Part shown: one piece after another, positions 2,316 to 15,038 of the stretch
How positions within the stretch are numbered: position 1 is the first letter of the stretch
Layout: every line of letters begins with the position of its first letter
Assembly: GCA_044229975.1 (NCBI GenBank)
Contig: JBGARZ010000009.1
Location: 411,947 to 432,085, forward strand
Direction of reading: 5' to 3'
Source: Polyangiales bacterium
GTDB taxonomy: Bacteria; Myxococcota_A; Polyangia; Polyangiales; Ga0077539
DNA length: 20,139 nt
Made by a program: the position numbers and the translations under genes
Notes under the pieces: model-generated
The model's database searches: none
The model's input: only the letters and a program-made list of their open reading frames with translations
Told to the model about the DNA's origin: nothing

Positions 2316-3899
2316 ATGACACTCCGTGGCGCATCACCTCCGGTCGCGCTCCTCGCCTGCCTCGCTGCGTGCAGCGGCGCCAGCATCGCCGCTTGCAGCG
2401 GCACCAGCACCGCCGTCGACGCCGGGCGATCGACCGACGTCCCCGCCGCGGTCGACGTCCCCGTCGCCGTCGATGTCGTGGACGTCGTGGATGTCACCGA
2501 GAAGGCGCCCGACGTCTCCGCCCTCGACGCTCCGACCGACGACACCCCCGTCGACGACGACGTGCCCGTGAGCGACGTGCCGACCGACGCGCCCGTCTCC
2601 GTAGCGTTGGCCGTCCCCTGCGCCGACACCGCGGCCAACGTGTACGTCACGCCCGCGGGCCTGCCGCTCTTCTCGCCCGCCGAGCGCGGCGCCGTGGTGC
2701 GCTGCACCGTCGACCCGCCGCAGAGCCTCGCGATGGTCGAGTCCAGCCTCCGCGCCGCCAACGTCGAGGGCGTCACCGCCGCGTGGCCCGTCGACGTCTA
2801 TCGCATCGCGTTTCGCACCATGCGCAACACCATCGGTGACGGGCTGTCGAGCGCGCGTGTGTACGTCCCTCGGGGGGTGGTCGGGCCGCGCCCGCTCGTG
2901 GTCGTCGCGCACCCCAGCGAGGGCATCGCCGACACCTGCGCCACCTCGCGCCGCGCCGACAGCATGCGCGACCTCGCGCTCCCGTGGGCCGCCCGCGGCT
3001 ATCCCGTCATCGCCCCCGACTACGCCGGCCTCGGCACCGACGGGACCCAAGGCTACCTCGACAACCGCGACACCGCGCAGTCGCTCCTCGACGGCGCCCG
3101 CGCGCTGCGCCGCATGCTCACGCCGGGGTCGCTCTCGTCGCGCATCCTGCTCGTGGGCCACAGCCAGGGCGGCGGCGCCGTGCTCGCGGCGCAGTCGCTC
3201 GTGCGCACCTACGGGGCCGACGGGGACATCGCCGCCGCCGTGGTGTTTGCGCCGGAGTGGCCGTCGCGCATCAACTCGTTCCGGCTGCTCGACGCGCTCC
3301 GCAACCCCGACGCGCTGACCATCACCTACGGCCTCACGACGCCCGTCGTGGCGACCTCCATGGCCTTCGCGTTCTACGAGAACTACCTCGGCGCCGGTCG
3401 CGGCGGCGAGGCCTTCCCCGCGCTGGCGCGCACCACGTCACCGGCCTCCATCAACTCGCTCTGCCTCACCGGCTACGGCGGCTATGTGCAGGGGCTCCAG
3501 CTCCGGGTGCGCGACTGGCTCGACGAGCCCGTGCGCGCGGGCTTCGTCGCCTGCGCCACCGACCGCGCGAGCCCCGCCTGCGCGGGCCCGGGGAGGGTCT
3601 TCTTCGAGTACGTGCGCGCCAACGCCGAGCTCGGACAGGCCGACCCCATGGGGGCGCCCGTGCTCTACGTGCAGGGCATGCTCGACACCATCATGCCGCC
3701 CGCCCGCGAGGCCGCGTGCAACCTGCTCCTGCTGCGCCGCGCCGGGGTCGACGTGGAGGTGTGCACCGACAACGCCGCGCTGCACACCACCGTGGTCGAG
3801 CGCAACGCGCGCCGCGCCATCGCCTGGGCCGAGGCCCGCCTCGCTGGCGGAACCATCCCGGGCTGCACCGGACCCGCGATGCCCGACTGCGAGCCGTAG
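2316..3899 (+). CDS. Secreted lipoprotein of the alpha/beta-hydrolase fold, a lipase/esterase-like enzyme.
   Basis: Start ATG at 2316 (MTLRGASPPVALLACLAACSG) gives a type II signal peptide with lipobox LAAC. This is followed by an acidic Val/Asp/Pro low-complexity linker. The 'LLVGHSQGGGAV' nucleophile elbow is a GxSxG motif. The upstream part of supplied ORF 2145..3899 overlaps the divergent gene and is not coding. Confidence 0.7.
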   Translation: MTLRGASPPVALLACLAACSGASIAACSGTSTAVDAGRSTDVPAAVDVPVAVDVVDVVDVTEKAPDVSALDAPTDDTPVDDDVPVSDVPTDAPVSVALAVPCADTAANVYVTPAGLPLFSPAERGAVVRCTVDPPQSLAMVESSLRAANVEGVTAAWPVDVYRIAFRTMRNTIGDGLSSARVYVPRGVVGPRPLVVVAHPSEGIADTCATSRRADSMRDLALPWAARGYPVIAPDYAGLGTDGTQGYLDNRDTAQSLLDGARALRRMLTPGSLSSRILLVGHSQGGGAVLAAQSLVRTYGADGDIAAAVVFAPEWPSRINSFRLLDALRNPDALTITYGLTTPVVATSMAFAFYENYLGAGRGGEAFPALARTTSPASINSLCLTGYGGYVQGLQLRVRDWLDEPVRAGFVACATDRASPACAGPGRVFFEYVRANAELGQADPMGAPVLYVQGMLDTIMPPAREAACNLLLLRRAGVDVEVCTDNAALHTTVVERNARRAIAWAEARLAGGTIPGCTGPAMPDCEP

Positions 3900-3908
3900 C
3901 GAAGGACC

Positions 3909-4574
3909 ATGAGCGCTCACCGACCGATCGAGATCCAGTGCTCCGCCTGCGGCGCCGCGGGGGAGTATGTGATGTGGGAGTCGGTCAACCGCGACCTCGA
4001 CCCCAGGGCCGCGAAGGCGCTCGGACACGGCGAGCTCCTCATGCACGAGTGCGCGGCGTGCGGTGTGAAGTCCGAGGTGGTCCACCCGGTGCTGCTCCAC
4101 GCAATGGCGCAGAAGGAGATGGTGCAGTTCACGGCGGGCGACGACGTGGGCGACGCGCTCTCGCCCGCGGTCGCGATGATGAAGGCGCTGGGGCCGTTCG
4201 TGCTCTGGACGGTGCCGAGCGTGGCCGACCTGCGCGAGGCCGCGCGCGTGTACGAGGCGGGGTTCGAGATGTTCGCGATGATGATGTTCCGGTTTCGGCT
4301 GCGGGCAGAGCTGGTGCGGTCGGGGAAGCCGGAGGTCACGGGCGTGCACTTCGATCACATGATCGACGAAGGCGATGGCCCGACGGCGTTGTTCGCGGTG
4401 CTCGTCGAGGGCGCGGGGGACGCAGGGTACGTGGGGGTTCCGCGCGCCCGCATCGCGGAGAACGAAGCCTTCCTCGCGCAGTTTCGCGAGCACGCCGTGA
4501 CGCCATGGACGTGGACGGCGTGGGACGACGAGACGGCCGGGGCGGTCTACCAACGGCTCGCGGGGCCGGACTGA
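3909..4574 (+). CDS. Hypothetical protein with an N-terminal zinc-ribbon (CpXC-like) pair, 'CSACG...CAACG'.
   Basis: A 'GAAGGA' Shine-Dalgarno-like sequence lies 5 nt upstream of ATG 3909. The start is 10 nt after the lipase stop, suggesting an operon. Two CxxCG motifs are spaced ~40 aa apart. Ordinary composition. Confidence 0.55.
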   Translation: MSAHRPIEIQCSACGAAGEYVMWESVNRDLDPRAAKALGHGELLMHECAACGVKSEVVHPVLLHAMAQKEMVQFTAGDDVGDALSPAVAMMKALGPFVLWTVPSVADLREAARVYEAGFEMFAMMMFRFRLRAELVRSGKPEVTGVHFDHMIDEGDGPTALFAVLVEGAGDAGYVGVPRARIAENEAFLAQFREHAVTPWTWTAWDDETAGAVYQRLAGPD

Positions 4575-4594
4575 GCGTCCGGCAGTAGAGAGGG

Positions 4595-4728
4595 CCGCCA
4601 GGGCGCAAGGGTCGCAAGGAACGGATGGGGAGGGATTGGCGCGGTGTTCGGAGCAGCGGCTGACTACCGTTGAATCCAGCCCTCCCGTCCTTCCCCATCT
4701 GTTCCTTGCGACCCTTGCGCCCTGGCGG
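4595..4728. repeat. Inverted-repeat element with 40-bp arms (38/40 match) flanking a ~55-bp spacer.
   Basis: Left arm ccgccagggcgcaagggtcgcaaggaacggatggggaggg (4595-4634). Right arm ccttccccatctgttccttgcgacccttgcgccctggcgg (4689-4728) is its reverse complement with 2 mismatches. Imperfect extension to about 48 bp. It lies 20 bp after the stop of the 3909..4574 gene. Confidence 0.6.
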
Positions 4729-4764
4729 CTTTGTCTCTCGCGGTTTGTGGCCGCGTCGACCCGC

Positions 4765-5245: not shown

Positions 5246-6217
5246 TCACCCGCCGCGCAGCAGGCGCAGCACCGTCACCGCCGCCGTCACGCTTCTCACC
5301 GTCGGCGCAAAGGTCCACCGCAGCGACGCCATCCCCTCCGCCACCGTCAGCGTCGGAACGTCCTCCAGGCACACCTCCCGCAACCCCTTCTGCGCCTCCC
5401 TCGCGCGCAGCGCTGCCGTCGCGCCGGGCTCGCCCTCCCACCCGAAGCGCCCGTCGAGCTCCGCGTCTCCCGTCGCCGCGCCGCGCCCGCTGCGTCCCAG
5501 TCCGCCCGACGCGCTCTGCGGCCGCAGCACCAGCCGCGCCGCCGACCGACGCGCCGTCGTCAGCAGCCCCACCTCCACCCGCGGCCCCGACCAGAACCCG
5601 CTCCCCTTCACCGCCCACGCATCGAAGACCATCGGCGCACCGCCCACGCGAAACCGCGCCCGCGCGCCCCGACCGTGCGCTGCGTCCAGCGTCGCCGCCG
5701 CGTCGAAGCGCAGCGCGATGTCCCTCACCCGCGCGCTCAACTTCTCCTGCGCGTCACTGCCTAGCTCCGCCGACGACACCTCGGCGAGCGACGCGTCGAT
5801 CACCCGCATCCACGGGAAGTCCACCCGCGGCCACTCGGCGGCAGGAACGTTCCAGGCGCGGTGCGGGTCGTCCATGTCAGCGAGCGCTTCGTCGATCGCC
5901 GCACGACAGCGCTCCAGCGCATCGATGGCCGCCAGCGCCGTGTGCCACTCGTCCACCCAGCGCCCGCCCTCTCGCAGCAACCCCTCGATGCGCTCGCGAA
6001 CCTCCACTGGCAGGTGACGCCACCCCCGCGCCTCGATGCGCGCGATGCCCTCACGCGCCTCCGCGTCGAGTCGTTGCCAGCGCTGCTGCAAGGTCGGGAG
6101 CGCGTCGCGGTACACGGTCGGCCGTGCTCCCTCGTAGCACGCTGTCCACCCGCGAGGTTTCCCCGACCGCCCGGTCGGGATACGTTCCGTCGCACCCGTC
6201 ATGGCGCTCAACCCCAT
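5246..6217 (-). CDS. Hypothetical protein (about 320 aa) of unknown function.
   Basis: Very strong third-position G bias along the whole ORF and ordinary composition. ATG candidates at 6217 and 6202. Both overlap the start of the divergent gene beginning at 6201. Confidence 0.55.
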   Translation of the reverse strand: MGLSAMTGATERIPTGRSGKPRGWTACYEGARPTVYRDALPTLQQRWQRLDAEAREGIARIEARGWRHLPVEVRERIEGLLREGGRWVDEWHTALAAIDALERCRAAIDEALADMDDPHRAWNVPAAEWPRVDFPWMRVIDASLAEVSSAELGSDAQEKLSARVRDIALRFDAAATLDAAHGRGARARFRVGGAPMVFDAWAVKGSGFWSGPRVEVGLLTTARRSAARLVLRPQSASGGLGRSGRGAATGDAELDGRFGWEGEPGATAALRAREAQKGLREVCLEDVPTLTVAEGMASLRWTFAPTVRSVTAAVTVLRLLRGG

Positions 6218-7406
6218 CGTGCTCGCGGTGCCGTTCTACTTCGTCGGGATGGGCGTCGAGGCGCTCATCAACCACAAGCTCCGCGCGCGGCTCTACGTGC
6301 TCGACGACACGCTCAACAACCTCGCGTGCGGGCTCTTCCAGCAGCTCCTCACGGTGGTCGCCAACGTCGCGCTCATGGCGCCGTACTACTGGCTCTATCG
6401 CCACGCGCGCGTGACCGACTGGTTCATCGCCCACCCCACCGTCGCGTGGATCACCGCGTTCGTGCTGTCGGACTTCTTCTATTACTGGTTCCATCGGTGG
6501 AGCCACGAGAGCGCCATCGGGTGGTTCAGCCACGTCGTCCACCACCAGAGCGAGGAGTACAACCTCTCCGTCGCGCTCCGTCAGGACGGCTGGCAGCCGC
6601 TCTTCTCGATGTGGTTCTTCCTGCCCATCGCGCTGCTGGGCGTTCCGCCCGCCGCGTTTGCCACCGCGTACGGCCTGGTCATCGTGCTCCAGTTCTGGAT
6701 CCACACGCGGCTCATCGGTCGCCTCGGACCGCTGGAGTGGGTGCTCAACACCCCGTCGCACCACCGCGTCCACCACGGCGTCGACCCCAAGTACCTCGAT
6801 AAAAACTACGCCGGCGTCTTCATCATCTGGGACCGGATGTTCGGCACCTTCCAGCGCGAGGAGGAGTCGCCCACCTACGGAACCATCGAGCCCGTCGCGA
6901 GCTTCAACCCCGGCTGGTCGCACCTCGCGTACGGCGCCAAGCTCGCGAAGAAGGTCGCCGCCATGCCCGACCTCTGGAGCGCCGCGCAGGCCATCGTCCG
7001 CTCGCCCGGATGGGTTCCCGCGGGCGTGCCGATGGAGGACCTCAACGCCCTCGCCGCCGAGCGCCTCACGGCCCCGAAGTACCGCGTGACGGTCACGCCT
7101 CCGCGCCGTCGCTACGTGCTCGCGGCCTTCGTGTTCGCGATGGTTCCGGGGCTCGCGCCGCTGGTGATTCCCTTTCCCGCGCTGGTGACGGTGGCCCTCT
7201 CGGCGCTCTCGGTGTGGGGCCTCACCAACGTCGGCGGCGTCACCGAGTCGCGCGCCTGGGCGGCTCCGTCGGAGCTCGCGCGGCTCGCGCTGATGAGCGC
7301 GGCGAGCATCGGGCTCGCGGCGTGGTCGCACCAGCCCGCGTGGTTGATCGCGAGCGTGGTGTCGGTGGTGTTGGCGGGGTGGACCCGTCGCGTCGCGACG
7401 GCCTGA
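6201..7406 (+). CDS. Fatty acid hydroxylase superfamily / sterol desaturase family integral membrane protein.
   Basis: Three histidine boxes, 'HRWSHE', 'HVVHHQS' and 'HHRVHHG', in the characteristic order and spacing for di-iron membrane hydroxylases/desaturases. Multiple transmembrane helices. Extra C-terminal ~110 aa hydrophobic extension. Confidence 0.75.
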   Translation: MALNPIVLAVPFYFVGMGVEALINHKLRARLYVLDDTLNNLACGLFQQLLTVVANVALMAPYYWLYRHARVTDWFIAHPTVAWITAFVLSDFFYYWFHRWSHESAIGWFSHVVHHQSEEYNLSVALRQDGWQPLFSMWFFLPIALLGVPPAAFATAYGLVIVLQFWIHTRLIGRLGPLEWVLNTPSHHRVHHGVDPKYLDKNYAGVFIIWDRMFGTFQREEESPTYGTIEPVASFNPGWSHLAYGAKLAKKVAAMPDLWSAAQAIVRSPGWVPAGVPMEDLNALAAERLTAPKYRVTVTPPRRRYVLAAFVFAMVPGLAPLVIPFPALVTVALSALSVWGLTNVGGVTESRAWAAPSELARLALMSAASIGLAAWSHQPAWLIASVVSVVLAGWTRRVATA

Positions 7407-7446: not shown

Positions 7447-8682
7447 GCGCGCGAGCAGGCTGCGCGCGATCTGCGACACCTGGATCTCGTCGGTGCCGCC
7501 GTAGATCTGGAGCACCTTGGCGTCGCGGCAGAGCTGCTCGACCTGATACTCGGCCATGTAGCCGTTGCCGCCGAAGAGCTGCACCGCCTCCAGGCAGACG
7601 TCCATGGTGGCCTGCGCCGTGTAGAGCTTGCACGCCGACGCCTCGGCCATGCTCATGGACTTCCCCGCCGCCGCCATCTCGATCTGGCGGAAGACGAGGT
7701 TGGTGATGTTCATGCGCGCGACCTCCATCTTCGCGAGCTTCAACTGGATGAGCTGAAACTCCCCGATGGGCTTGCCGAACTGCACCCGCGTCTTCGCGTA
7801 CTCCGTCGACAGCGCGAGGCACTGCTCGACGATGCCCAATGCCATTGCGGCCACGCCCGTTCGCTCCGACGCGAAGGTCTCCTTGGCCGCCGCGCGCGAC
7901 GGCGTGTCCTCGGTCTCGCCGATGAGGCGATCGACCCCCACGCGAACGTCTTCGAGGAAGAGCTCGCCCGTCGGTGAGCTGTGCATGCCCATCTTGCGAA
8001 GGGGCTTGCTCTGCACGAGGCCGGGCATGCCCTTCTCCAGCACGAAGCTCACGATCTTGCGCCGCTCGGGCGGGGTCTCCCCGTCGTCGAGCTTGCAGAT
8101 GAACACGATGGTGTCGGCGTACGGACCGTTGGTGATGAAGGTCTTGCTGCCGTTGAGGATGTAGCCGCCCTCACCATCGCGGCGCGCCGTGGACTTCATC
8201 CCGCCAAACGCGTCGGAGCCAGAGCCGGGTTCGGTGATGGCCCACGCCCCGATCTTGTCGAGGGTGAGCAGGTCGCGCGCCCAGCGCTCCTTCTGGCGGA
8301 TGGTTCCGCGGGACATGATGGCGGCGGCGGTGAGGCCGAGGCTCACGCCCATCGCGGTGATCATCCCGGGGCTGTACTTCGAGATCTCGATGACGGGGAT
8401 GAGCCGCAGACCGAGGTCCATTCCGCGGGGGGCGCGCTCCCTGGTGTCGTCGTCGGTGGGGGCGGCGCCGCTCTCGGCCTTCGCCTTCTCGCGAGCGATC
8501 TGCGCCTCGAACTGCCCGATGGCCATGTCGCGCACCCCAAACGATTCGAGGAACTTCCTCAGGATGTCGTACGGGAGCATGTCGCCGTGCTCCAGCGCTT
8601 CGAGGTTGGGCTTGATCTCGGCCTCCACGAAGCGACGGACGGCGTCACGGATGGCCTGATGGGTCTCGTTCCATTCGAACAT
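7444..8682 (-). CDS. Acyl-CoA dehydrogenase (412 aa).
   Basis: Start ATG at 8682-8680 (MFEWNETHQAIRDAVRRFVEAEI) with 'GGAGGA' 8 nt upstream. Canonical ACAD blocks 'GAWAITEPGSGSDA', 'YILNGSKTFITNG', 'QLFGGNGY' and 'YGGTDEIQ'. The upstream 390 codons of supplied ORF 7444..9852 are Arg/His-rich junk. Confidence 0.85.
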   Translation of the reverse strand: MFEWNETHQAIRDAVRRFVEAEIKPNLEALEHGDMLPYDILRKFLESFGVRDMAIGQFEAQIAREKAKAESGAAPTDDDTRERAPRGMDLGLRLIPVIEISKYSPGMITAMGVSLGLTAAAIMSRGTIRQKERWARDLLTLDKIGAWAITEPGSGSDAFGGMKSTARRDGEGGYILNGSKTFITNGPYADTIVFICKLDDGETPPERRKIVSFVLEKGMPGLVQSKPLRKMGMHSSPTGELFLEDVRVGVDRLIGETEDTPSRAAAKETFASERTGVAAMALGIVEQCLALSTEYAKTRVQFGKPIGEFQLIQLKLAKMEVARMNITNLVFRQIEMAAAGKSMSMAEASACKLYTAQATMDVCLEAVQLFGGNGYMAEYQVEQLCRDAKVLQIYGGTDEIQVSQIARSLLAR

Positions 8683-8755
8683 GGCGATGGGTCCTCCGCG
8701 ACGAACGATACAGGACTCCGTGAGCCCGCGAGGGCGACGCCCATTGCATCGCCTT

Positions 8756-8784
8756 CGTTGACAATACCGTCCATGACATACCGA
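8756..8784 (+). promoter_or_regulatory. Candidate sigma70-type promoter. A perfect TTGACA -35 hexamer sits at 8756-8761, with a weak -10 (ACCGAT/CCGATT) 16-17 bp downstream.
   Basis: Lies in the 132-bp divergent intergenic region between the dehydrogenase (start 8682, minus) and the lipoprotein gene (start 8815, plus). The -10 is poor. Confidence 0.2.
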
Positions 8785-8814
8785 TTCTGTTGAGCATCGG
8801 GCGGCGGTACAACG

Positions 8815-9741
8815 GTGCTCATGAACACCTCGTCGTCGCGTCGTGGCCTCTCGCTGGTGATGTTCGCGCTGCTCGCGACGGGTTGCGGGGCGTCGGTGTC
8901 GTCGGCGCCGGTGACGGTGGAGAGCGACGCCGGGAGCGTGGTGACGGACGCGCCGACGCCGGTCGCGCCGATGACGTGGCCGAGCTGTGCCGAGGTGCGG
9001 GCGACGTGCGGGGCCGAGCCGCAGCGCCTGGTGCGCGGACACGCCGAGGGGCTGACGGGGCTCGACGGCGCGCGGGTGCGCTTCGCGATGCGGTACATCC
9101 GCGAGGAGGGCAACGGGCTCAACGTTCCGCACGGCGTGGTGGTGGCGGGGGCCGAGGTGCGCGACGGGGCCTTCGAGGCGTGCGTGTGCATGCCGATGGG
9201 CGGCAACAACTACCCGCAGGTGGTGGCGGTGGTGTTTGCGCCGGGGACGACGGGGGAGACGAGCCGCGAGGTGGCGCGGGCGACGTTCAGCCAGCGCTAC
9301 GCGACGCTGGGCAGCGAGAACCTGTCGTACGCATTGAGCGGGGTGGCGTCGGCGCCGGTGGTGGAGGCATCGCTCGCGGGGCTGGTCGAGCGCGCGCACA
9401 CGGTGCGGGTGCGCGGCGTGGAGACGGCGGCGGCGATGGAGGGAAGGGTCTACGCGGGTCTGGTGGCCGACGAGCGGCCCGTGGCGGCGCAGGTGGTGAC
9501 GGGCGGCGCCGTCGAGGGCGGCGCGCTGGGCTTCGAGTGGATCATGCCGGGGCGCGAGTGGCCGAGCGAGCGCGTGGCGATGGTGGTCGACCGCAACGGC
9601 AACCGACGGTGTGACGAAGGGGACGTCGGCGCGACGGTGCGGCTCGATGGGCGGCGCGAGGTGGATGGCGTCGCGTGGGTGCAGGGCGACGCGCTGGCGG
9701 GCGTGTGCGCGGCGCTGCGGATGGAGTCGGAGCGGGAGTAG
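8815..9741 (+). CDS. Hypothetical lipoprotein (about 308 aa).
   Basis: GTG at 8815 or ATG at 8821. Signal peptide 'MNTSSSRRGLSLVMFALLATGC' with lipobox ATGC. No recognisable catalytic motif. Confidence 0.55.
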   Translation: MLMNTSSSRRGLSLVMFALLATGCGASVSSAPVTVESDAGSVVTDAPTPVAPMTWPSCAEVRATCGAEPQRLVRGHAEGLTGLDGARVRFAMRYIREEGNGLNVPHGVVVAGAEVRDGAFEACVCMPMGGNNYPQVVAVVFAPGTTGETSREVARATFSQRYATLGSENLSYALSGVASAPVVEASLAGLVERAHTVRVRGVETAAAMEGRVYAGLVADERPVAAQVVTGGAVEGGALGFEWIMPGREWPSERVAMVVDRNGNRRCDEGDVGATVRLDGRREVDGVAWVQGDALAGVCAALRMESERE

Positions 9742-9764
9742 CGGCGGGGTCGTTGCGCCCGGCT

Positions 9765-9887
9765 GCCGCGCACTGAAGTACGCGGCAACGTTGCGGACAT
9801 CGAGCATGGCACTGCAAGTCCGCTCTGCGGACTTTGCATGGAATTGCGTCATCCCTTCCGGCGTTGCCGCGTACTTCAGTGCGCGGC
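9765..9887. repeat. MITE-like element with perfect 26-bp terminal inverted repeats (gccgcgcactgaagtacgcggcaacg) flanking a 71-bp core that carries its own internal hairpin (gcaagtccgc-tct-gcggacttTgc).
   Basis: Arms at 9765-9790 and 9862-9887 are exact reverse complements. It lies between the convergent lipoprotein and kinase genes. Confidence 0.6.
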
Positions 9888-9931
9888 GACGAGCGCGACG
9901 GCACCCGAAAGAGTGGACGAATCAGGAGTCT

Positions 9932-11335
9932 CTACTCGACCGGGACGTGCTCGTGGGCCTGCGGGCGGACGGTGACCGCGGGCCGCGGCAACGGGCGCAA
10001 CACACGCGGCGCAACCCTCACCGGCGGACCTGCATCGACCACGAGCGCCTGCGTCGGGACCGCCACCGGAGGCGGTGACACGACGGGCGGAGGCGGAGGC
10101 GGCGGCGTCACCACCAGCGTCGGTGGCGGCGGCAGTGGCGCGTGGGCGGGCGCAGGCGCGGGGCTCGACGAGCCGACGAGGTACAGCGCCGTGAACGACA
10201 GGCCCGCGGTGGCGAGTGCCGCGGCGACGAGCAGCGGGGCGCGAGAGGGGCGCGGCGCGACGGACTGGGTGATGGGCTTGAGGGTGGTGGTGCGGTCGGG
10301 GGGCGGGCGCGGTCCGAGGACGGGCGCGGTGGTGAGGGCGTCCCAGCTCGCGGTGGCGGGGACGGCGGCGTCGAGGGCGCGGAGGAGGTCGCGCGCGTGC
10401 TGGAAGCGATCGGCCGGGCGCAGCGCGAGGGCGCGGGCGAGGACGGGCTCCCAGGGGCCGACGTCGAGGCCGAACTTCGCCGGGGTGGGGCGCGTGGCGG
10501 AGAGGACGTCGACGGTGAGGGCGGTGTTGTCGTCGCCGCGGAAGGGCGGGCCGTCGGTGAGCACCTCGACGAGGAGGAGCGCGAGGGCGTGGACGTCGGT
10601 CCAGGGGCCGGAGCGGGTCCCGCCGATCTGCTCGGGGGAGGCGTACGCGAGGGTGAAGGCGCGGAGGTCGGTGCGGGTGGCGGTCTCGCCGGAGGCGACG
10701 GTCTCGTCGAGGTCCATGGCCTTGGCGATGCCGAAGTCGAGGAGCTTCGGGGTGACGCCGTCGCGGGAGCGGGCGAGCATGACGTTGGCGGGCTTGAGGT
10801 CGCGGTGGGCGACGCCCTCGTCGTGCGCGATGGCGAGCGCCTCGAAGACCGGGCGCAGGAGCGCGAGGGCCTCAGCGGGAGGGCGGCCGGTGCGGTCGCG
10901 GCGGGCGTCGAGGATGGATTCGAGGGAGTCACCGTCGATCCATTCGAGGACGATCCAGGGGGCGGCGCCGCCTGATGGGAGGAGGCCGCCGCCGAAGTCG
11001 AGGACGCGGACGATGCCGGGGTGTTCGAGGCGGGCGATGGTGCGCGCCTCGAAGACGAACTTGTCGATGAACGACCGGCGGTGCGACTCCGGGATGGTCG
11101 ACGGGGTCTTGAGCACCTTGATGGCGACAGGCTTCTGGAGGGAGCGGTGGGTGGCCCGGTAGACGACGCCGAAGCCGCCCTCGGCGATGAGGGAGTGGAC
11201 GTCGTATTTGCCGTCGAGGCGGGTTCCCAGGAGGGAGAAGGGGTCGGTGGGGGCGGCGGGGGGCACGGCGGGGGTTAGTTGAATTGTTCGATGACGAAAG
11301 GGTTTGATACCGTTCCTGTGATCGGCCCAACACAA
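9932..11335 (-). CDS. Serine/threonine protein kinase (Hanks type). It has a C-terminal transmembrane segment and a proline-rich periplasmic tail.
   Basis: Motifs 'GGFGVVY', 'AIKVL', 'HRDLKPANVM', 'DFGIAK' and 'ASPEQ'. Transmembrane segment 'LLVAAALATAGLSFTALYLVG'. Poly-Pro tail. The supplied start is a TTG at 11335 that overlaps the upstream gene. A GTG at 11266-11264 (MPPAAPTDPFSLLG...) lies 9 nt after the upstream stop and is the more likely start. Confidence 0.85.
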   Translation of the reverse strand: MCWADHRNGIKPFRHRTIQLTPAVPPAAPTDPFSLLGTRLDGKYDVHSLIAEGGFGVVYRATHRSLQKPVAIKVLKTPSTIPESHRRSFIDKFVFEARTIARLEHPGIVRVLDFGGGLLPSGGAAPWIVLEWIDGDSLESILDARRDRTGRPPAEALALLRPVFEALAIAHDEGVAHRDLKPANVMLARSRDGVTPKLLDFGIAKAMDLDETVASGETATRTDLRAFTLAYASPEQIGGTRSGPWTDVHALALLLVEVLTDGPPFRGDDNTALTVDVLSATRPTPAKFGLDVGPWEPVLARALALRPADRFQHARDLLRALDAAVPATASWDALTTAPVLGPRPPPDRTTTLKPITQSVAPRPSRAPLLVAAALATAGLSFTALYLVGSSSPAPAPAHAPLPPPPTLVVTPPPPPPPVVSPPPVAVPTQALVVDAGPPVRVAPRVLRPLPRPAVTVRPQAHEHVPVE

Positions 11336-12138
11336 GGCGGATAGCGCGCGTCGGGAGCAACGATTTCCAATCTCAGCGAGTAACTACGTCCCGCGTCGAG
11401 TCGGTATAGTTCGTGACCGGTGATGTTTAGTGGTGTCCCCATAGGCGGCTCCGATACGAGGCGGACCGTGTAAGAGTTTCCATGGGTGTCGTTCGCGGCT
11501 ACGCTACTAAGGGGTACCGATGTAACCTCATAGTAGGCTGAGGCCGATGCCGTAAAGGCGATGCTGAACTGCGGCCCCATCAGCGGAATCGCCAAAACGG
11601 AAGGAGATGAGGGACATGGAACACTGATGCTATCTACTGTGGGACTCGTCGGCCTCCAACTCCCAATCACCACCTGCCTTCCCGCTGGTCGCGCTTCTAC
11701 CGCCGCAATCCTCGCCTCCAGCGCACCCGCGGCGGCCGTCGCCCGCCCGGCCTCCAACGCATACGGCACGGCGCCCAGCTTCGACCGCGGGAACGTCGTC
11801 CCCTCCACCTGCACCTCGGCCCACAGCTCCGGGTTCGCCCGCACCGCGCCGACACACGCCGCATCCAGCGCCACCCGGAATCGCCCGCCCGTGAACGTCG
11901 TCCCCACCGCGGTCGTCGAGCACACCGTCGCGCCCGCCGTGGCAGCGTCCCACAGCCGCACCGTGACGTTGCGCGCGCCTTCCACCGGGCGCCCGCCGTC
12001 ATTGAGCACACCGCCGTAGTACAGCGGGTTCACCGCCGGGACGCCGTCCGCTCGCGCTCGCCCGACGCGATAGGCGACAACGCCCACGACGAGACAAGCG
12101 CCAACGCTCCACACCAGGAGGGAGGAGGGTCTCTTCAT
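11275..12138 (-). CDS. Signal-anchored (N-terminal transmembrane) protein, paralogue A. It has a conserved N-terminal beta-rich domain ('VRLWDAATAG...GRFRVALD...ELWAEVQVEGTTFPRSKLGAVPYALEA') and a variable C-terminal domain.
   Basis: ATG at 12138-12136 with GGAG 9 nt upstream. The remainder of supplied ORF 11275..12423 lies inside the palindromic repeat and is not coding. Transmembrane helix 'LLVWSVGACLVVGVVAY'. About 90% identical over residues 20-150 to the gene at 12809..13675. Confidence 0.7.
   Translation of the reverse strand: MKRPSSLLVWSVGACLVVGVVAYRVGRARADGVPAVNPLYYGGVLNDGGRPVEGARNVTVRLWDAATAGATVCSTTAVGTTFTGGRFRVALDAACVGAVRANPELWAEVQVEGTTFPRSKLGAVPYALEAGRATAAAGALEARIAAVEARPAGRQVVIGSWRPTSPTVDSISVPCPSSPSVLAIPLMGPQFSIAFTASASAYYEVTSVPLSSVAANDTHGNSYTVRLVSEPPMGTPLNITGHELYRLDAGRSYSLRLEIVAPDARYPPCVGPITGTVSNPFVIEQFN
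11651..12050. repeat. Copy 1 of a ~400-bp direct nucleotide repeat (about 90% identity with 13179-13580). It covers the 5' coding part of paralogue A.
   Basis: Aligned by eye. Identity begins exactly at 'ggcctccaactcccaatcac', which encodes VIGSWRP, and runs toward the gene start. Confidence 0.7.
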
Positions 12139-12171
12139 ACGATAGGACTCCAGGTGGGCCTGACTTGAGGC

Positions 12172-12440
12172 GATGGGGAGTGGTTCAGGCCAGTGTGCGT
12201 CGCTGGGGTTCGGGCGCTGGCCCTCACCCCAGGCAATAACAAGCAGGCGCCCCGGACAGGGTCCGGGGCTTTCGACCAGGAACTCGTTGAAGCCAATGAC
12301 ACCATGCGAGATCCGCGTCGTAAGACCCATCGAGTGTCGGTTCGAAAGCCCCGGACCAGTCCGGGGCGCCCGCTTGTTATTGCCTGGGGTGAGGGCCAAC
12401 GCCCGAACCCCAGCGACGCACACTGGCCTGAACCACCATC
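12172..12440. repeat. Large composite palindrome. Arms of ~100 bp (about 96% identity) flank a ~65-bp centre. Each arm ends in an 8-bp GC hairpin (ccccggac-agg-gtccgggg) followed by CTTTCGA.
   Basis: Left arm 12172-12275 and right arm 12341-12440 are reverse complements with 3-4 mismatches. The palindrome also appears as mirrored 'proteins' in supplied ORFs 12173..12709(+), 12193..12666(+) and 12135..12875(-). Confidence 0.6.
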
Positions 12441-12491
12441 AAGCGACGTCCCGACCTCGCGCATCCCGTCGACGAGCATCCACTCACGCTC

Positions 12492-12718
12492 GCCCAATGC
12501 GTCCTTACCCGAGGGGGCGCTCCCGCCCAGGCCCTCCCAGCGCGTCCTTACCCGAAGGGACGCGACCGCCCACGTCAGCGGTATCCGGTCTCCGTCGGGA
12601 AGCTCGACGCGCGCCGGATCGGACCTCCGCGAACGCGAACGTAGGTGGTCGCGTCCCTTCGGGTAAGGACGCGTTGGGAGGGCCTGAGTGCGAGCACCCC
12701 TTCGGGTGAGGGCGCATT
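12492..12718. repeat. Second nested palindrome, a REP/BIME-like cluster. Four copies of a ~24-nt hairpin unit (cgcgtccttacccgaagggacgcg and variants) are arranged as two inverted pairs.
   Basis: 12539-12572 is the reverse complement of 12643-12678 (2 mismatches). 12492-12522 is roughly the reverse complement of 12688-12718. Each unit contains a cUUCGg or GAA-loop hairpin. Confidence 0.5.
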
Positions 12719-12808
12719 GGGACAGCCCGGGTGAATGGGCTGTTGAACGGAGACGCGGAGCCGATGCGCTCAAATGGTCAACCCGCAAGAGGCAGTCGTG
12801 AGCATCCA

Positions 12809-13675
12809 TCACTCCAACTGCTCCGCCATCATGGGCCTTCGCGCGAAGAACTCCGTAGCCGGACTCGTTCGACATGCCACGTCCGCACGCATCTCTACGA
12901 AGAACGAGTATTCTCTTCCAGTTTCAAGACGAAAGACGGCTTCAAGTCGATCTCCGATCTCACTCCTATCAAACACCAAAGCAGCAGGAACACTCGAAGC
13001 CAGCCGCGTAAACCCAAGCGCAACCGTATTTTCTGCCGGTGCCGATACCCGATACAATCCGGCCGATGATGCAGTGAAGGTCAACGAGAACGGTTCACCC
13101 CCGATCCTCACATACGAGGTCGCGGGAGGCGGCGTCGTTGGACAGATAACGGGGAAGGTAACTGCTGTCGGCGTAGCCGGCCTCCAACTCCCAATCACGA
13201 CTTGTCTCGTCGCAGTTCTCCCCTCCACCGCCGCAATCCTCGCCTCCAGCGCCCCAGTCGCACCCGCCGCGCTCACCGCCCTCCCGGCCTCCAACGCATA
13301 CGGCACCGCGCCCAGCTTCGACCGCGGGAACGTCGTCCCCTCCACCTGCACCTCGGCCCACAGCTCCGGGTTCGCCCGCACCGCACCGACGCACGCCGCG
13401 TCCAGCGCCACCCGGAAGCGCCCGCCCGTGAACGCCGTCCCCGCCGCGCTCGTCGTGCACACCGCCGCGCCCGCCGTCGCCGCATCCCACAGCCGCACCG
13501 TCACGGCCCGCACGCCCTCCACCGGGCGCCCGCCGTCACTCAACACACCGCCGTAGTACAGCGGGTTCATCGCCGGAACACCGTCCGCCCGCGCCTTCCC
13601 CAGCCGATACGCCGCGACCATGCCCACAACGGACAACGCCGCGGCGCCCAGCACCACGCCCCGCCGCGCCTTCAC
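12809..13675 (-). CDS. Signal-anchored protein, paralogue B. It has the same conserved N-terminal domain as 11275..12138 and a diverged but homologous C-terminal domain.
   Basis: GTG start at 13675-13673 (MKARRGVVLGAAALSVVGMVAAY...) overlaps the TGA of the upstream gene as GTGA. An ATG at 13714 is an alternative. Transmembrane helix present. 'AVPYALEA' block. Confidence 0.7.
   Translation of the reverse strand: MKARRGVVLGAAALSVVGMVAAYRLGKARADGVPAMNPLYYGGVLSDGGRPVEGVRAVTVRLWDAATAGAAVCTTSAAGTAFTGGRFRVALDAACVGAVRANPELWAEVQVEGTTFPRSKLGAVPYALEAGRAVSAAGATGALEARIAAVEGRTATRQVVIGSWRPATPTAVTFPVICPTTPPPATSYVRIGGEPFSLTFTASSAGLYRVSAPAENTVALGFTRLASSVPAALVFDRSEIGDRLEAVFRLETGREYSFFVEMRADVACRTSPATEFFARRPMMAEQLE
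13179..13580. repeat. Copy 2 of the ~400-bp direct repeat, covering the 5' coding part of paralogue B.
   Basis: See copy 1. It is also the source of the mirrored antisense ORFs 11561..12019(+) and 12774..13556(+). Confidence 0.7.
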
Positions 13676-14028
13676 GGCAACAACCCTCCCGTCAAACACA
13701 GCGTCCCCACGCATCCCGGTGCGCCCACCTCGAAGCCCGTCTCGCTCAGCTCCAGCGTCCCCATCGTGACGCTCCCGCCGCTCGTCGTCGCGATCCCCTG
13801 CGCCTGCATCACCAGCCCCGTCGCGCCTCCACCGTCGTCCGGCGTCCCCGCGTCACCCGTCACGTCACCCGTCGCATCCCCCATCACCCCGCGATCGCCC
13901 AACGCGCCATCAACCATCGCCGCCCCGACGTCCATCACCGCCGCGTCGCGCCTCGGTCGGTACACCCACTCCTCATCGGAGCACCCCGCCACCAGCACCG
14001 CGGCCACCGCCCACCGCGCCGCCTTCAC
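13672..14028 (-). CDS. Small Gly/Asp-rich lipoprotein (about 118 aa).
   Basis: GTG at 14028-14026 overlaps the upstream TGA as GTGA. Signal peptide 'KAARWAVAAVLVAGC' with lipobox LVAGC. Its stop overlaps the next start as GTGA again. Confidence 0.5.
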   Translation of the reverse strand: MKAARWAVAAVLVAGCSDEEWVYRPRRDAAVMDVGAAMVDGALGDRGVMGDATGDVTGDAGTPDDGGGATGLVMQAQGIATTSGGSVTMGTLELSETGFEVGAPGCVGTLCLTGGLLP

Positions 14029-15038
14029 AGCACGCCACCCACCGCGAGCCCGTTGCCCGTCGGAACCACCCACGTCGTCGGTCGCCCCTCCGCCGCGCTC
14101 CCCCCGCTCGCCCGCGCCACCAGAAACCACACCACCCCGCCCGCCACCATCGCGCTGCCGACCCCGATGGCCACGTTGGTCCCCGTCGTGAACCCGCGCA
14201 TCCGCTCGTCCGCGTCGATGGACGACGCGTCACACCCACCCGCGTCGCACGCCCCGTCGCGCTCGCTCATCGCGCCGCCGTGCATCCCCCACAGCACGCC
14301 CGCACCCACGAAGGCCGCCGCCCCGACGCCCGCCAACACCCACGGCCCGGCGCCCACCCCGCGACGCACCGGCCCCTCCGCCGGCGCCACCGCCCTCGGC
14401 GCTTCCACCACGGTCCGCGGCGCCGGTCGCACCACCGCATCCGCGGCTCTCGGCGCGTCAAGCGCGACCTCGGCGCTCGCTCCCGCGGTCACCGTCACCG
14501 TCACCGTCTGCGCGTGATGGAGCGCCTCGTCGCTCACGCGCACCGTCACCTCGCCCGGATCAACCGGCACCGCCACGCCCCACGCCGCCGCGGGCAGCTC
14601 GCGACCGCCGACGGTTACCGCCGCGTTCGTGAGCCCGGCCGGAACGCGCACCGTCAGCCGCCCGACCCGCCCCGAGAGAGCCCCCGTGAGCTCGCGACAG
14701 ATGCCGAGGATGCGATCGCGGTTGCGCAGGGCCGCGTCGGCGGTGGCGTCGGCGGTGCAGCGTCGCGCGTGATCGAGCGCCGTGACGAAGTGCCCGAGCT
14801 GCTCATGTTCCTGCGCGAGCAGGAGCGCCAGCGACGGCGTCATCCGCAGGGCCGCCGCGCGACCGGCGAGCTCCGCGGCCTGCGCGTGGTCGCCCGCCTC
14901 ACGGGCGCGCTCGGCCTGCGCGACGAGGTCACGCCGTAGCGCGTCGGTGTCGGTCTGCGCGAGCGCCGTCGAGGTGGTCGTGAGCAGCGCGACCGCACAC
15001 ATGACCGAGCGCGCCCACCGTCCGATCGTCCCGCTCAT
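14025..15038 (-). CDS. Secreted, membrane-anchored hypothetical protein. It has a signal peptide, a helical (TPR-like) N-terminal region, a beta-rich PEGA-like middle, and two C-terminal transmembrane helices.
   Basis: ATG at 15038. Signal peptide 'MSGTIGRWARSVMCAVALLTTTSTALAQ'. Segment 'LTVRVPAGLTNAAVTVGGRELP...GEVTVRV' resembles a PEGA-type beta-sandwich. Hydrophobic segments 'GPWVLAGVGAAAFVGAGVLWGM' and 'VAIGVGSAMVAGGVVWFLVA'. Confidence 0.55.
   Translation of the reverse strand: MSGTIGRWARSVMCAVALLTTTSTALAQTDTDALRRDLVAQAERAREAGDHAQAAELAGRAAALRMTPSLALLLAQEHEQLGHFVTALDHARRCTADATADAALRNRDRILGICRELTGALSGRVGRLTVRVPAGLTNAAVTVGGRELPAAAWGVAVPVDPGEVTVRVSDEALHHAQTVTVTVTAGASAEVALDAPRAADAVVRPAPRTVVEAPRAVAPAEGPVRRGVGAGPWVLAGVGAAAFVGAGVLWGMHGGAMSERDGACDAGGCDASSIDADERMRGFTTGTNVAIGVGSAMVAGGVVWFLVARASGGSAAEGRPTTWVVPTGNGLAVGGVL

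Follow-up and report, generated by a model that had tools for sequence, protein, structure and literature searches.

The 670-nucleotide (nt) spacer at positions 12139–12808 of the 20,139-nt stretch of Polyangiales DNA analysed here (the window, about 72% GC as a whole) separates two tandem paralogous genes of the minus strand, A and B, and probably holds two adjacent non-autonomous palindromic elements, E1 and E2, of the type of repetitive extragenic palindromes (REPs) and of REPINs, the REP doublets that form hairpins. E1 is an inverted doublet with sequence-constrained cores, structure-constrained GC hairpins and a free-evolving centre, and its family has spread through the intergenic DNA of related uncultured Myxococcota. 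E2 is built of two tandem 43-nt hairpin units and their inverted counterparts and, as judged from sequence similarity, appears to be related to a palindrome without a gene that derives from the inverted-repeat flanks of a gene resembling those of REP-associated tyrosine transposases (RAYTs). The evidence comprises the palindromes themselves, their non-coding nature, the dispersal and near-identical copies of E1, the chain of similarity leading from E2 through locus L049 to the RAYT-like gene, and the uneven conservation of the spacer in place. The preliminary description of this DNA, which had likened the spacer to a REP cluster of the bacterial interspersed mosaic element (BIME) type or to a pair of MITEs (miniature transposable elements with inverted repeats), is right in kind, as E1 is multi-copy in relatives and E2 units are related to RAYT-like flanks; the roles that it proposed for the spacer (bidirectional terminator and insulator, recombination hotspot, structured RNA) would be candidate functions. 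The spacer adds a myxococcotal case to an already known class of small, mobile palindromic DNA, and no REP or MITE family described for Myxococcota was found in the literature.

The genes around the spacer are all encoded on the minus strand and follow each other in the direction of transcription as a 337-aa gene (14025–15038), B (12809–13714), the 670-nt spacer, A (11275–12138) and a Ser/Thr kinase gene (9932–11335). The spacer and its flanks contain the following features:

11275–12138, minus strand: paralogue A (287 aa), which borders the spacer downstream, start codon ATG at 12138–12136
12139–12171, minus strand: linker between E1 and gene A, with a GGAG ribosome-binding site at 12149–12152 (minus strand) as read from the sequence
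12172–12440: E1, REPIN-like palindromic element of about 270 nt, from inverted repeats and fold; the family-wide part is 12197–12419
12197–12241, plus strand: left core of E1, GCGTCGCTGGGGTTCGGGCGCTGGCCCTCACCCCAGGCAATAACA, with the imperfect hairpin 1 inside (12203–12232)
12249–12269, plus strand: left hairpin 2 of E1, a 9-bp GC stem with a 3-nt loop, then TTTCGA
12277–12339: centre of E1, asymmetric and unconstrained, 40 of 63 columns varying among orthologues
12348–12367, minus strand: right hairpin 2 of E1, mirror of 12249–12269
12375–12419, minus strand: right core of E1, with hairpin 1 at 12384–12413 and 0 mismatches to the family consensus
12441–12476: linker between E1 and E2, partly complementary to 12746–12757 (helix 4 of the global fold)
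12477–12737: E2, palindrome of 261 nt, in which a tandem pair of 43-nt units, a centre and an inverted pair of units follow each other
around 12493–12531 (plus strand) and 12683–12721 (minus strand): outer units of E2
12536–12574, plus strand: inner left 43-nt unit of E2, CCCAGCGCGTCCTTACCCGAAGGGACGCGACCGCCCACG, with a 9-bp hairpin at 12541–12564; the mirror unit is at 12640–12678 (minus strand)
12581–12633: centre of E2, 53 nt, partly self-complementary (helices 7–8) and fairly conserved
12738–12808, minus strand: linker between E2 and the stop codon of gene B, with neutral-like divergence
12809–13714, minus strand: paralogue B (301 aa), which borders the spacer upstream, from the list of open reading frames (ORFs) and its translation

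E1 and E2 are two very long palindromes, as the preliminary description recognised, but its statement that the spacer is built entirely of nested palindromes does not hold, since the two elements cover about 530 of the 670 nt and the three linkers (12139–12171, 12441–12476 and 12738–12808; together about 140 nt) show weak self-complementarity and are not palindromic. The linker between the two elements may be what is left of an outer E2 unit after decay. An inverted-repeat search places the arms of E1 at 12180–12267 and 12349–12436 (88 nt, 93% complementary), with an inner extension at 12260–12289/12328–12357, and those of E2 at 12477–12580 and 12634–12737 (104 nt, 83% complementary, with 53 nt between them). 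Hairpin 1 of the left E1 arm is composed of 7 bp, a 2 × 2 internal loop, 4 bp and a 4-nt loop, and the GC hairpin reported earlier for the arms is present as GCCCCGGACAGGGTCCGGGGC followed by TTTCGA at 12249–12275, with its mirror at 12348–12367. E2 contains four hairpins of about 22 nt each (12499–12520 and 12542–12563 on the plus strand, 12651–12672 and 12694–12715 on the minus strand). These are the four units previously described as head to head, although their order is two in tandem followed by two inverted, just the two pairs being head to head, with an actual repeat period of 43 nt.

Folded as minus-strand RNA, E1 reaches −247.8 kcal/mol against a mean of −118 for dinucleotide shuffles (z = −23.9) and E2 reaches −213.1 kcal/mol against −126 (z = −16.3), 0 of 200 shuffles being as good for either element. 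Folding of both strands had been proposed as a check, and the plus strand and DNA parameters agree with the minus-strand result (z = −18 for E2 there).

The E1 family and the relatives of E2

One exact 23-base pattern of the E1 core, scanned against one genome per GTDB species, is found in 27 stretches of three myxobacterial species represented by metagenome-assembled genomes (MAGs), namely Myxococcaceae RYN_369, 'Deltaproteobacteria' AalW BATAC.29 (GCA_016704445.1) and Myxococcales E6 bin 30; the family also occurs on the ENA metagenome contig L004. The distinct E1 loci number at least about 10 in GCA_016704445.1 and about 13 in MAG RYN_369; units that are single-copy in the genome had been named as evidence against a repeat family, and in these relatives E1 is multi-copy. 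None of the 27 stretches is syntenic with the window. Nearly all matches are convergent plus/minus pairs about 180 nt apart, i.e. an inverted doublet of about 225 nt like 12197–12419 of the window, while several single matches lie within about 150 nt of contig ends, a position expected of repeats, and E1 copies appear to break MAG assemblies. Nineteen of the 22 copies examined are located between predicted genes, mostly 40–120 nt away from them and in every gene orientation, and the remaining three lie under long ORFs which are probably over-extended. Two copies are inside Bat/MoxR operons. In the AalW MAG, three copies from separate loci share 99–100% identity over 229 nt, which argues for recent spread. 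Neither the E1 core nor the E2 unit was found in viral contigs.

In an alignment of 49 E1 arms from about 30 non-syntenic loci, the arm consists of a 44-nt almost invariant core (GCGTCGCTGGGGTTCGGGCGTTGGCCCTCACCCCAGGCAATAACA) with the interrupted hairpin, followed by the 9-bp GC hairpin and the tail CTGTCGAAC. Hairpin 1 (30 nt) is 99% paired in 41 distinct arms and has one compensatory pair, while 4 of the 9 pairs of hairpin 2 are changed on both sides across the family with 99% of cells paired, which amounts to 5 pairs changed on both sides for the local E1 hairpins together. Constraint on E1 is at the level of the sequence, even in the loops, and this speaks for recognition by a protein more than for RNA folding on its own. 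The centre is asymmetric and variable among family members and occurs in either orientation; the arms outside the core differ between genomes, module CCCTATCGCTTCTACACATC being always about 46 nt outside the core in two MAGs. At L009, tandem amplification is seen as three tandem 60-nt copies of the hairpin-1 unit. Two further members are located inside larger palindromes, with arms continuing for more than 130 nt beyond the core at L015 (6640–7140) and for about 65 nt or more at L025 (1580–2070), and the layers of these palindromes differ by locus in an onion-like manner, as may result from nested insertion into hairpin loops or from outward palindrome growth.

E2 units are absent from about 190 kb around the E1 copies, and a metagenome scan with an exact 20-mer of the E2 unit gives no match. 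A relaxed 22-nt E2 pattern has 16 matches in the metagenomes, of which L045 and L046 alone extend beyond the pattern and the other 14 are read as chance. L045, on an unrelated contig, contains a 2-mismatch copy of the 39-nt E2 unit, and the single units of L045 and L046 are both situated directly after stop codons.

Locus L051 of the AalW MAG (GCA_016704445.1, JADJAE010000150.1) contains the syntenic operon and, about 300 nt downstream of the kinase gene, a 162-aa ORF (6574–7062) with a HIH (HUH) motif, which scores 30.6 for Y1_Tnp against a Pfam cut-off of 23 and the homologues of which are named 'REP element-mobilizing transposase RayT' in JGI. This RAYT-like ORF is located between 150-nt inverted repeats (6361–7239; 94% complementary) of 34-nt tandem units, GGTACGACCGCGAGGCCGTCGGCGA, and has the same context in 10 of the 10 assemblies returned, several of them from wastewater; in this related genome it is a single, vertically inherited gene of one fixed locus, not a multi-copy insertion sequence (IS). 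Two homologues, one 82% identical and placed in a different context, the other 48% identical and from another genome, are flanked likewise. Locus L049 contains a gene-less palindrome (1999–2431; 193-nt arms, 93% complementary, 47 nt between them), which lies upstream of a homologue of window gene 14025–15038. The outer arms of this palindrome share 82–85% identity with the RAYT flanks of L051 over 147–176 nt (E 1e-41 to 1e-44), while its inner 43-nt units share 75–79% identity with E2 of the window (E 3e-12), and the 28 nt adjoining the RAYT gene on both sides are identical to E2 at 24 of 28 positions. On these similarities, E2 is best read as a RAYT-less, REPIN-like relative of the L051 RAYT system.

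Some further features of the RAYT-bearing loci may be recorded. The 48% homologue (L067, 4318–5375) is flanked by inverted triplets of ~60-nt units beginning GGTACGCGCC, and a reverse transcriptase–Cas1 fusion gene (8667–12074) is located 3.6 kb from it. L051 has about 1.5 kb without a called gene (2420–3931) between a 148-aa gene and the single paralogue, with 24-nt inverted repeats at its bounds, which may be a decayed insertion sequence. A RAYT homologue (P0146), considered as lying on the same contig as an E1 copy, is ruled out, as the genome differs.

Conservation in place and rival explanations

Protein matches of the 246-aa minus-strand ORF of the spacer lead to three orthologous loci, L001 (NCBI GCA_044228995.1), L002 (JGI) and L003 (ENA), each with B, spacer and A. 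Both elements are kept at all four loci including the window, the spacers (658–670 nt) align end to end, and these four form the set used for conservation. The spacer of the window shares 81–83% pairwise identity with the others, against 91–95% for housekeeping genes; a stronger conservation of the spacer than of its flanking genes, as suggested by a mean column identity of 89%, is rejected on pairwise identity, the cores alone being conserved. The linkers have a neutral-like mean pairwise difference of 25–29% (25% in the bin 12139–12179, 29% between E1 and E2 and 27% in 12738–12808), the E1 centre 39% (63% of columns variable) and the E1 hairpin-2 regions 23–27%. The corresponding values are 6–8% for the two 45-nt E1 cores (variable columns 5/45 on the left and 7/45 on the right, 11–16%), 7–10% for the E2 inner units and 13% for the E2 centre (12 of 53 columns). 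Compared with the linkers, and with most four-fold degenerate sites in neighbouring genes, the cores are conserved 3–5 times more strongly. These four-fold sites differ by 12–42% except in one near-identical gene (2.5%), and Fisher tests against the linkers give p values of 1.6e-10 (E1 cores) and 1.5e-7 (E2 inner units). At the same site, L001 carries another E1 subfamily with GCGA for TAAC in both arms and a shortened hairpin 2, features common to L012 from another genome, and the apparent compensatory change between orthologues is therefore better read as replacement or conversion by a family member.

By analogy with the biochemistry of IS200/IS605 and RAYTs, the imperfect subterminal hairpins would form in DNA exposed as a single strand at the replication fork, and an HUH tyrosine transposase acting in trans would recognise and cut them, the element being copied or moved without terminal duplication. 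Such a mechanism would fit because conservation peaks at the subterminal hairpin and acts on the sequence including loops, and because no target duplication is visible. For the operon, no promoter-like site precedes gene A, and B, A and the kinase gene are therefore probably co-transcribed through two ~100-bp hairpins. In such a transcript the two RNA hairpins would block 3′ exonucleases in the manner of REPs and BIMEs and would protect the 3′ end of B, or alternatively may be targets of RNase III that uncouple B from A, or bring about partial attenuation, rather than canonical termination. As a speculative and rather unlikely extension, E1 may represent an undescribed REPIN-like family of Myxococcota, the cores of which are kept here by binding of a protein (a RAYT or a host factor), and this binding would control the relative expression of the two surface-protein paralogues or promote the exchange of their variable, low-GC C-terminal domains.

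Several results weigh against REP/REPIN-type elements. A dead insertion under neutral decay would lose its conserved cores; that they persist calls for a host or protein-binding role, or else for repeated conversion by copies elsewhere, and the data do not tell these two possibilities apart. The 27 loci yielded no transposase gene with E1 cores on its flanks, and there is no transposase among the 10 E1-neighbour genes checked individually or, for the 116 predicted neighbour genes, among the 25 most frequent Pfam families listed of 141 matched. The closest species representative has just two exact-core loci, and E1 may be low-copy in the lineage of the window. Outside the syntenic loci, E2 is represented in the scans by one composite (L049) and two convincing singles (L045 and L046), and its link to the RAYT is indirect, via L049 and one 28-nt direct match, the 34-nt units of the RAYT flanks being absent from the window. 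The best NCBIfam match of the L051 protein, 'REP-associated tyrosine transposase', scores 29.8, far below the cut-off of 80, and this protein has no significant sequence match to solved RAYT or IS200 structures.

The spacer might instead be a host-selected cis-regulatory element of this operon, i.e. a structured intercistronic RNA or a bidirectional terminator and insulator that sets the B:A:kinase ratio and derives from a domesticated repeat, an account considered rather unlikely. It would explain why both elements are retained at all four orthologous loci with cores more conserved than linkers and most four-fold sites, and why hairpin 2 keeps its structure with a different sequence in L001 and L012. 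It also agrees with the promoter scan, in which no promoter-like site for gene A is found within the spacer, so that read-through from B is plausible. However, about 30 unrelated intergenic sites carry the same core, oriented in every way relative to genes, and the constraint on sequence including loops favours protein recognition over RNA folding alone. The other subfamily at the same site in L001 fits conversion or replacement over local selection, and more distant relatives with the same operon and one paralogue (L049/L050 and L051, found by a search of the paralogue family) have no spacer and no element beside that paralogue. The GC hairpin had been called terminator-like, a reading weakened because there is no U-tract (the tail is TTTCGA here) and because family members are found inside operons and in every gene orientation, and a terminator scan of 11900–13000 returns 0 terminator-like sites. 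Rfam 15 gives 0 matches at gathering thresholds over the whole window, a permissive Rfam search gives sub-threshold generic long-hairpin matches only, and a tRNA/tmRNA search of the window yields nothing meaningful.

Classical MITEs, which are deletion derivatives of DDE-type insertion sequences moved by cut-and-paste with target-site duplications, are improbable here, even though the multi-copy elements have the appropriate size (225–310 nt, against 50–800 bp for MITEs), long terminal inverted repeats (the MITE minimum being 10–15 bp) and no transposase ORF or other ORF, and IS110 and Tn5-like transposase genes are present in related loci. Their best-conserved part is the subterminal imperfect hairpin instead of the outermost ends, which differ between subfamilies; no direct target duplication is recognisable at 13 copies, the flanks continuing the palindrome; no parent insertion sequence with ends like those of E1 is seen among the listed families and checked genes next to E1 copies; and E2 is tied instead to the flanks of a Y1 transposase gene. 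A real protein encoded across the spacer, such as the 246-aa minus-strand ORF annotated in public records, is very improbable. The frame made by the palindromes (window 12135–12875, minus strand) has no stop in any of the four orthologues, the indels sum to 12 nt in L001 with a single indel of 6 nt in L003, and gene callers predicted products of 222–242 aa. Nevertheless, the three long spanning ORFs have a flat GC content at codon positions 1, 2 and 3 (0.65/0.64/0.68), against at least 0.9 at the third position (GC3) in neighbouring genes, and the variable sites of the four orthologues are spread evenly over the positions (0.33/0.28/0.35 per codon position) with no codon periodicity, as expected from the earlier view of them as mirror-image fake proteins. 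The 5- and 7-nt deletions of L001 put about 100 nt out of frame and are mirror images in the two arms; they are therefore symmetry effects, not coding effects. The spacer ORFs have no Pfam domain match, and a search of the 246-aa ORF against 5.8 billion proteins gives five entries (P0001–P0005), namely the product of the window itself, three products of this locus in relatives and a single one from another E1 copy; a conserved protein across the region, which the preliminary description had allowed for, is contradicted by homologues that occur in repeat copies only. These hypothetical proteins of 222–248 aa are an annotation artefact spreading in protein databases, and in practice the elements both yield such deposited ORFs and appear to interrupt MAG assemblies. 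Finally, the palindromes could be a scar of the tandem duplication that made B and A, a fold-back junction sequence which was never mobile, and the spacer is indeed seen only where the paralogue is duplicated; this explanation has next to no probability, being largely refuted by the presence of E1 and E2 sequences at many other loci and genomes independently of A and B, and the spacer shares no sequence beyond chance with the paralogues or their flanks.

By reading of the sequence, four other candidates are dropped: an integron attC site (the R-box does not fit and there is no integrase nearby), a sigma-54 promoter (the −24/−12 consensus does not fit), a retron msr/msd (no reverse transcriptase nearby) and a small RNA gene pair (the copies have no orientation preference).

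Comparison with known palindromic elements

REPIN–RAYT systems are chiefly understood from Pseudomonas and enterobacteria. REPINs and their RAYT transposases were defined in Pseudomonas fluorescens SBW25 (PMC3116915). As in REPINs, the elements of the window have two conserved inverted ends, each over a short imperfect palindrome, and a less conserved spacer, and form one long hairpin (PMC3116915). The basic unit is likewise a short imperfect palindrome within 20–40 nt (30 nt for E1 hairpin 1 and 22–24 nt in E2); the elements are extragenic, multi-copy (E1, in relatives) and sometimes in ordered tandem clusters (L009); and the lineage has one fixed locus where inverted repeat arrays surround a gene for a RAYT-like Y1 transposase (L051). 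Unlike REPINs, E1 is about twice as long (225–310 nt), with cores about 180 nt apart from start to start versus 71 nt, its arms contain a second, structure-conserved GC hairpin and outer layers that differ between genomes, and no RAYT with E1 cores on its flanks was found at its 27 loci. E2 differs in being a doublet of tandem doublets with an indirect tie to a RAYT, and the host belongs to an uncultured Myxococcota lineage instead of the gammaproteobacteria. The same REPIN logic would be met in uncultured 72%-GC Myxococcota in an extreme form, with arms of 100–190 nt made of layered hairpin modules. One RAYT of fixed locus, a gene-less derivative and orthologues in which cores, hairpins and centres evolve at different rates provide a tractable set for study.

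In E. coli, the BIMEs or REP clusters are situated between genes of the same operon as mosaics of short palindromic units whose orientation alternates, and are expected to stabilise the upstream mRNA or to cause partial attenuation, not clean termination. The elements of the window are also a mosaic of short palindromic units within one operon, but the unit sequences are unrelated and the palindromic arms are much longer.

CGTC-tagged REPs have 8–9-bp stems starting with A-T pairs, 4–5-nt loops and a CCA-like 3-nt tail (PMC3733652). CGTC is found just 5′ of hairpin 1 in most E1 arms (alignment columns 2–5), and, as in these REPs, head-to-head dimers predominate and no dedicated transposase was found (PMC3733652). 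E1 does not belong to them by structure, as its hairpin 1 is a GC-rich, interrupted stem of 7 + 4 bp without a CCA tail, and the shared tag may be a coincidence. Correia/NEMIS, ERIC and RUP elements are small non-coding palindromic intergenic repeats which can be co-transcribed with their neighbours and processed, and which have defined terminal repeats and target duplications (TA for Correia). The elements of the window resemble them in being small, non-coding, palindromic and intergenic, but defined terminal repeats or target duplications are not demonstrable here and conservation peaks at the subterminal hairpin.

Flanking genes and other palindromes of the window

The spacer is flanked by true paralogues, as noted from the outset, since A and B share 62% amino acid identity. 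Paralogue A has no Pfam or NCBIfam match. The N-terminal module of A and B is conserved with a GC3 of about 0.9, while the C-terminal halves (11275–11706 in A and 12809–13261 in B) are divergent with a GC3 of just 0.58. In homologues elsewhere, the N-terminal module is joined to phage tail collar (PF07484), C1q (PF00386) or FGE-sulfatase domains, and A and B look like members of a putative surface or lectin-like family with swapped C-terminal domains.

The fatty-acid hydroxylase gene (window 6201–7406; L001 17198–18403) differs by 2.5% at four-fold sites, against 12–35% for its neighbours, which suggests a recent recombinational exchange of this segment.

Two more long palindromes are present in the window. 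The third (9745–9905) lies between the convergent stop codons of the kinase gene and gene 8815–9741, and has perfect 26-nt arms (9765–9790/9862–9887) and an RNA fold with z = −9.6. In L001 there are 9 nt between the same two stop codons, and the site therefore represents an insertion/deletion polymorphism of about 180 nt. The fourth palindrome (4587–4736) is intergenic, with 60-nt arms that are 83% complementary and 30 nt apart. A related palindrome is found in MAG RYN_369 (L024, 2190–2389), and at least one further palindromic repeat family is therefore common to these genomes.

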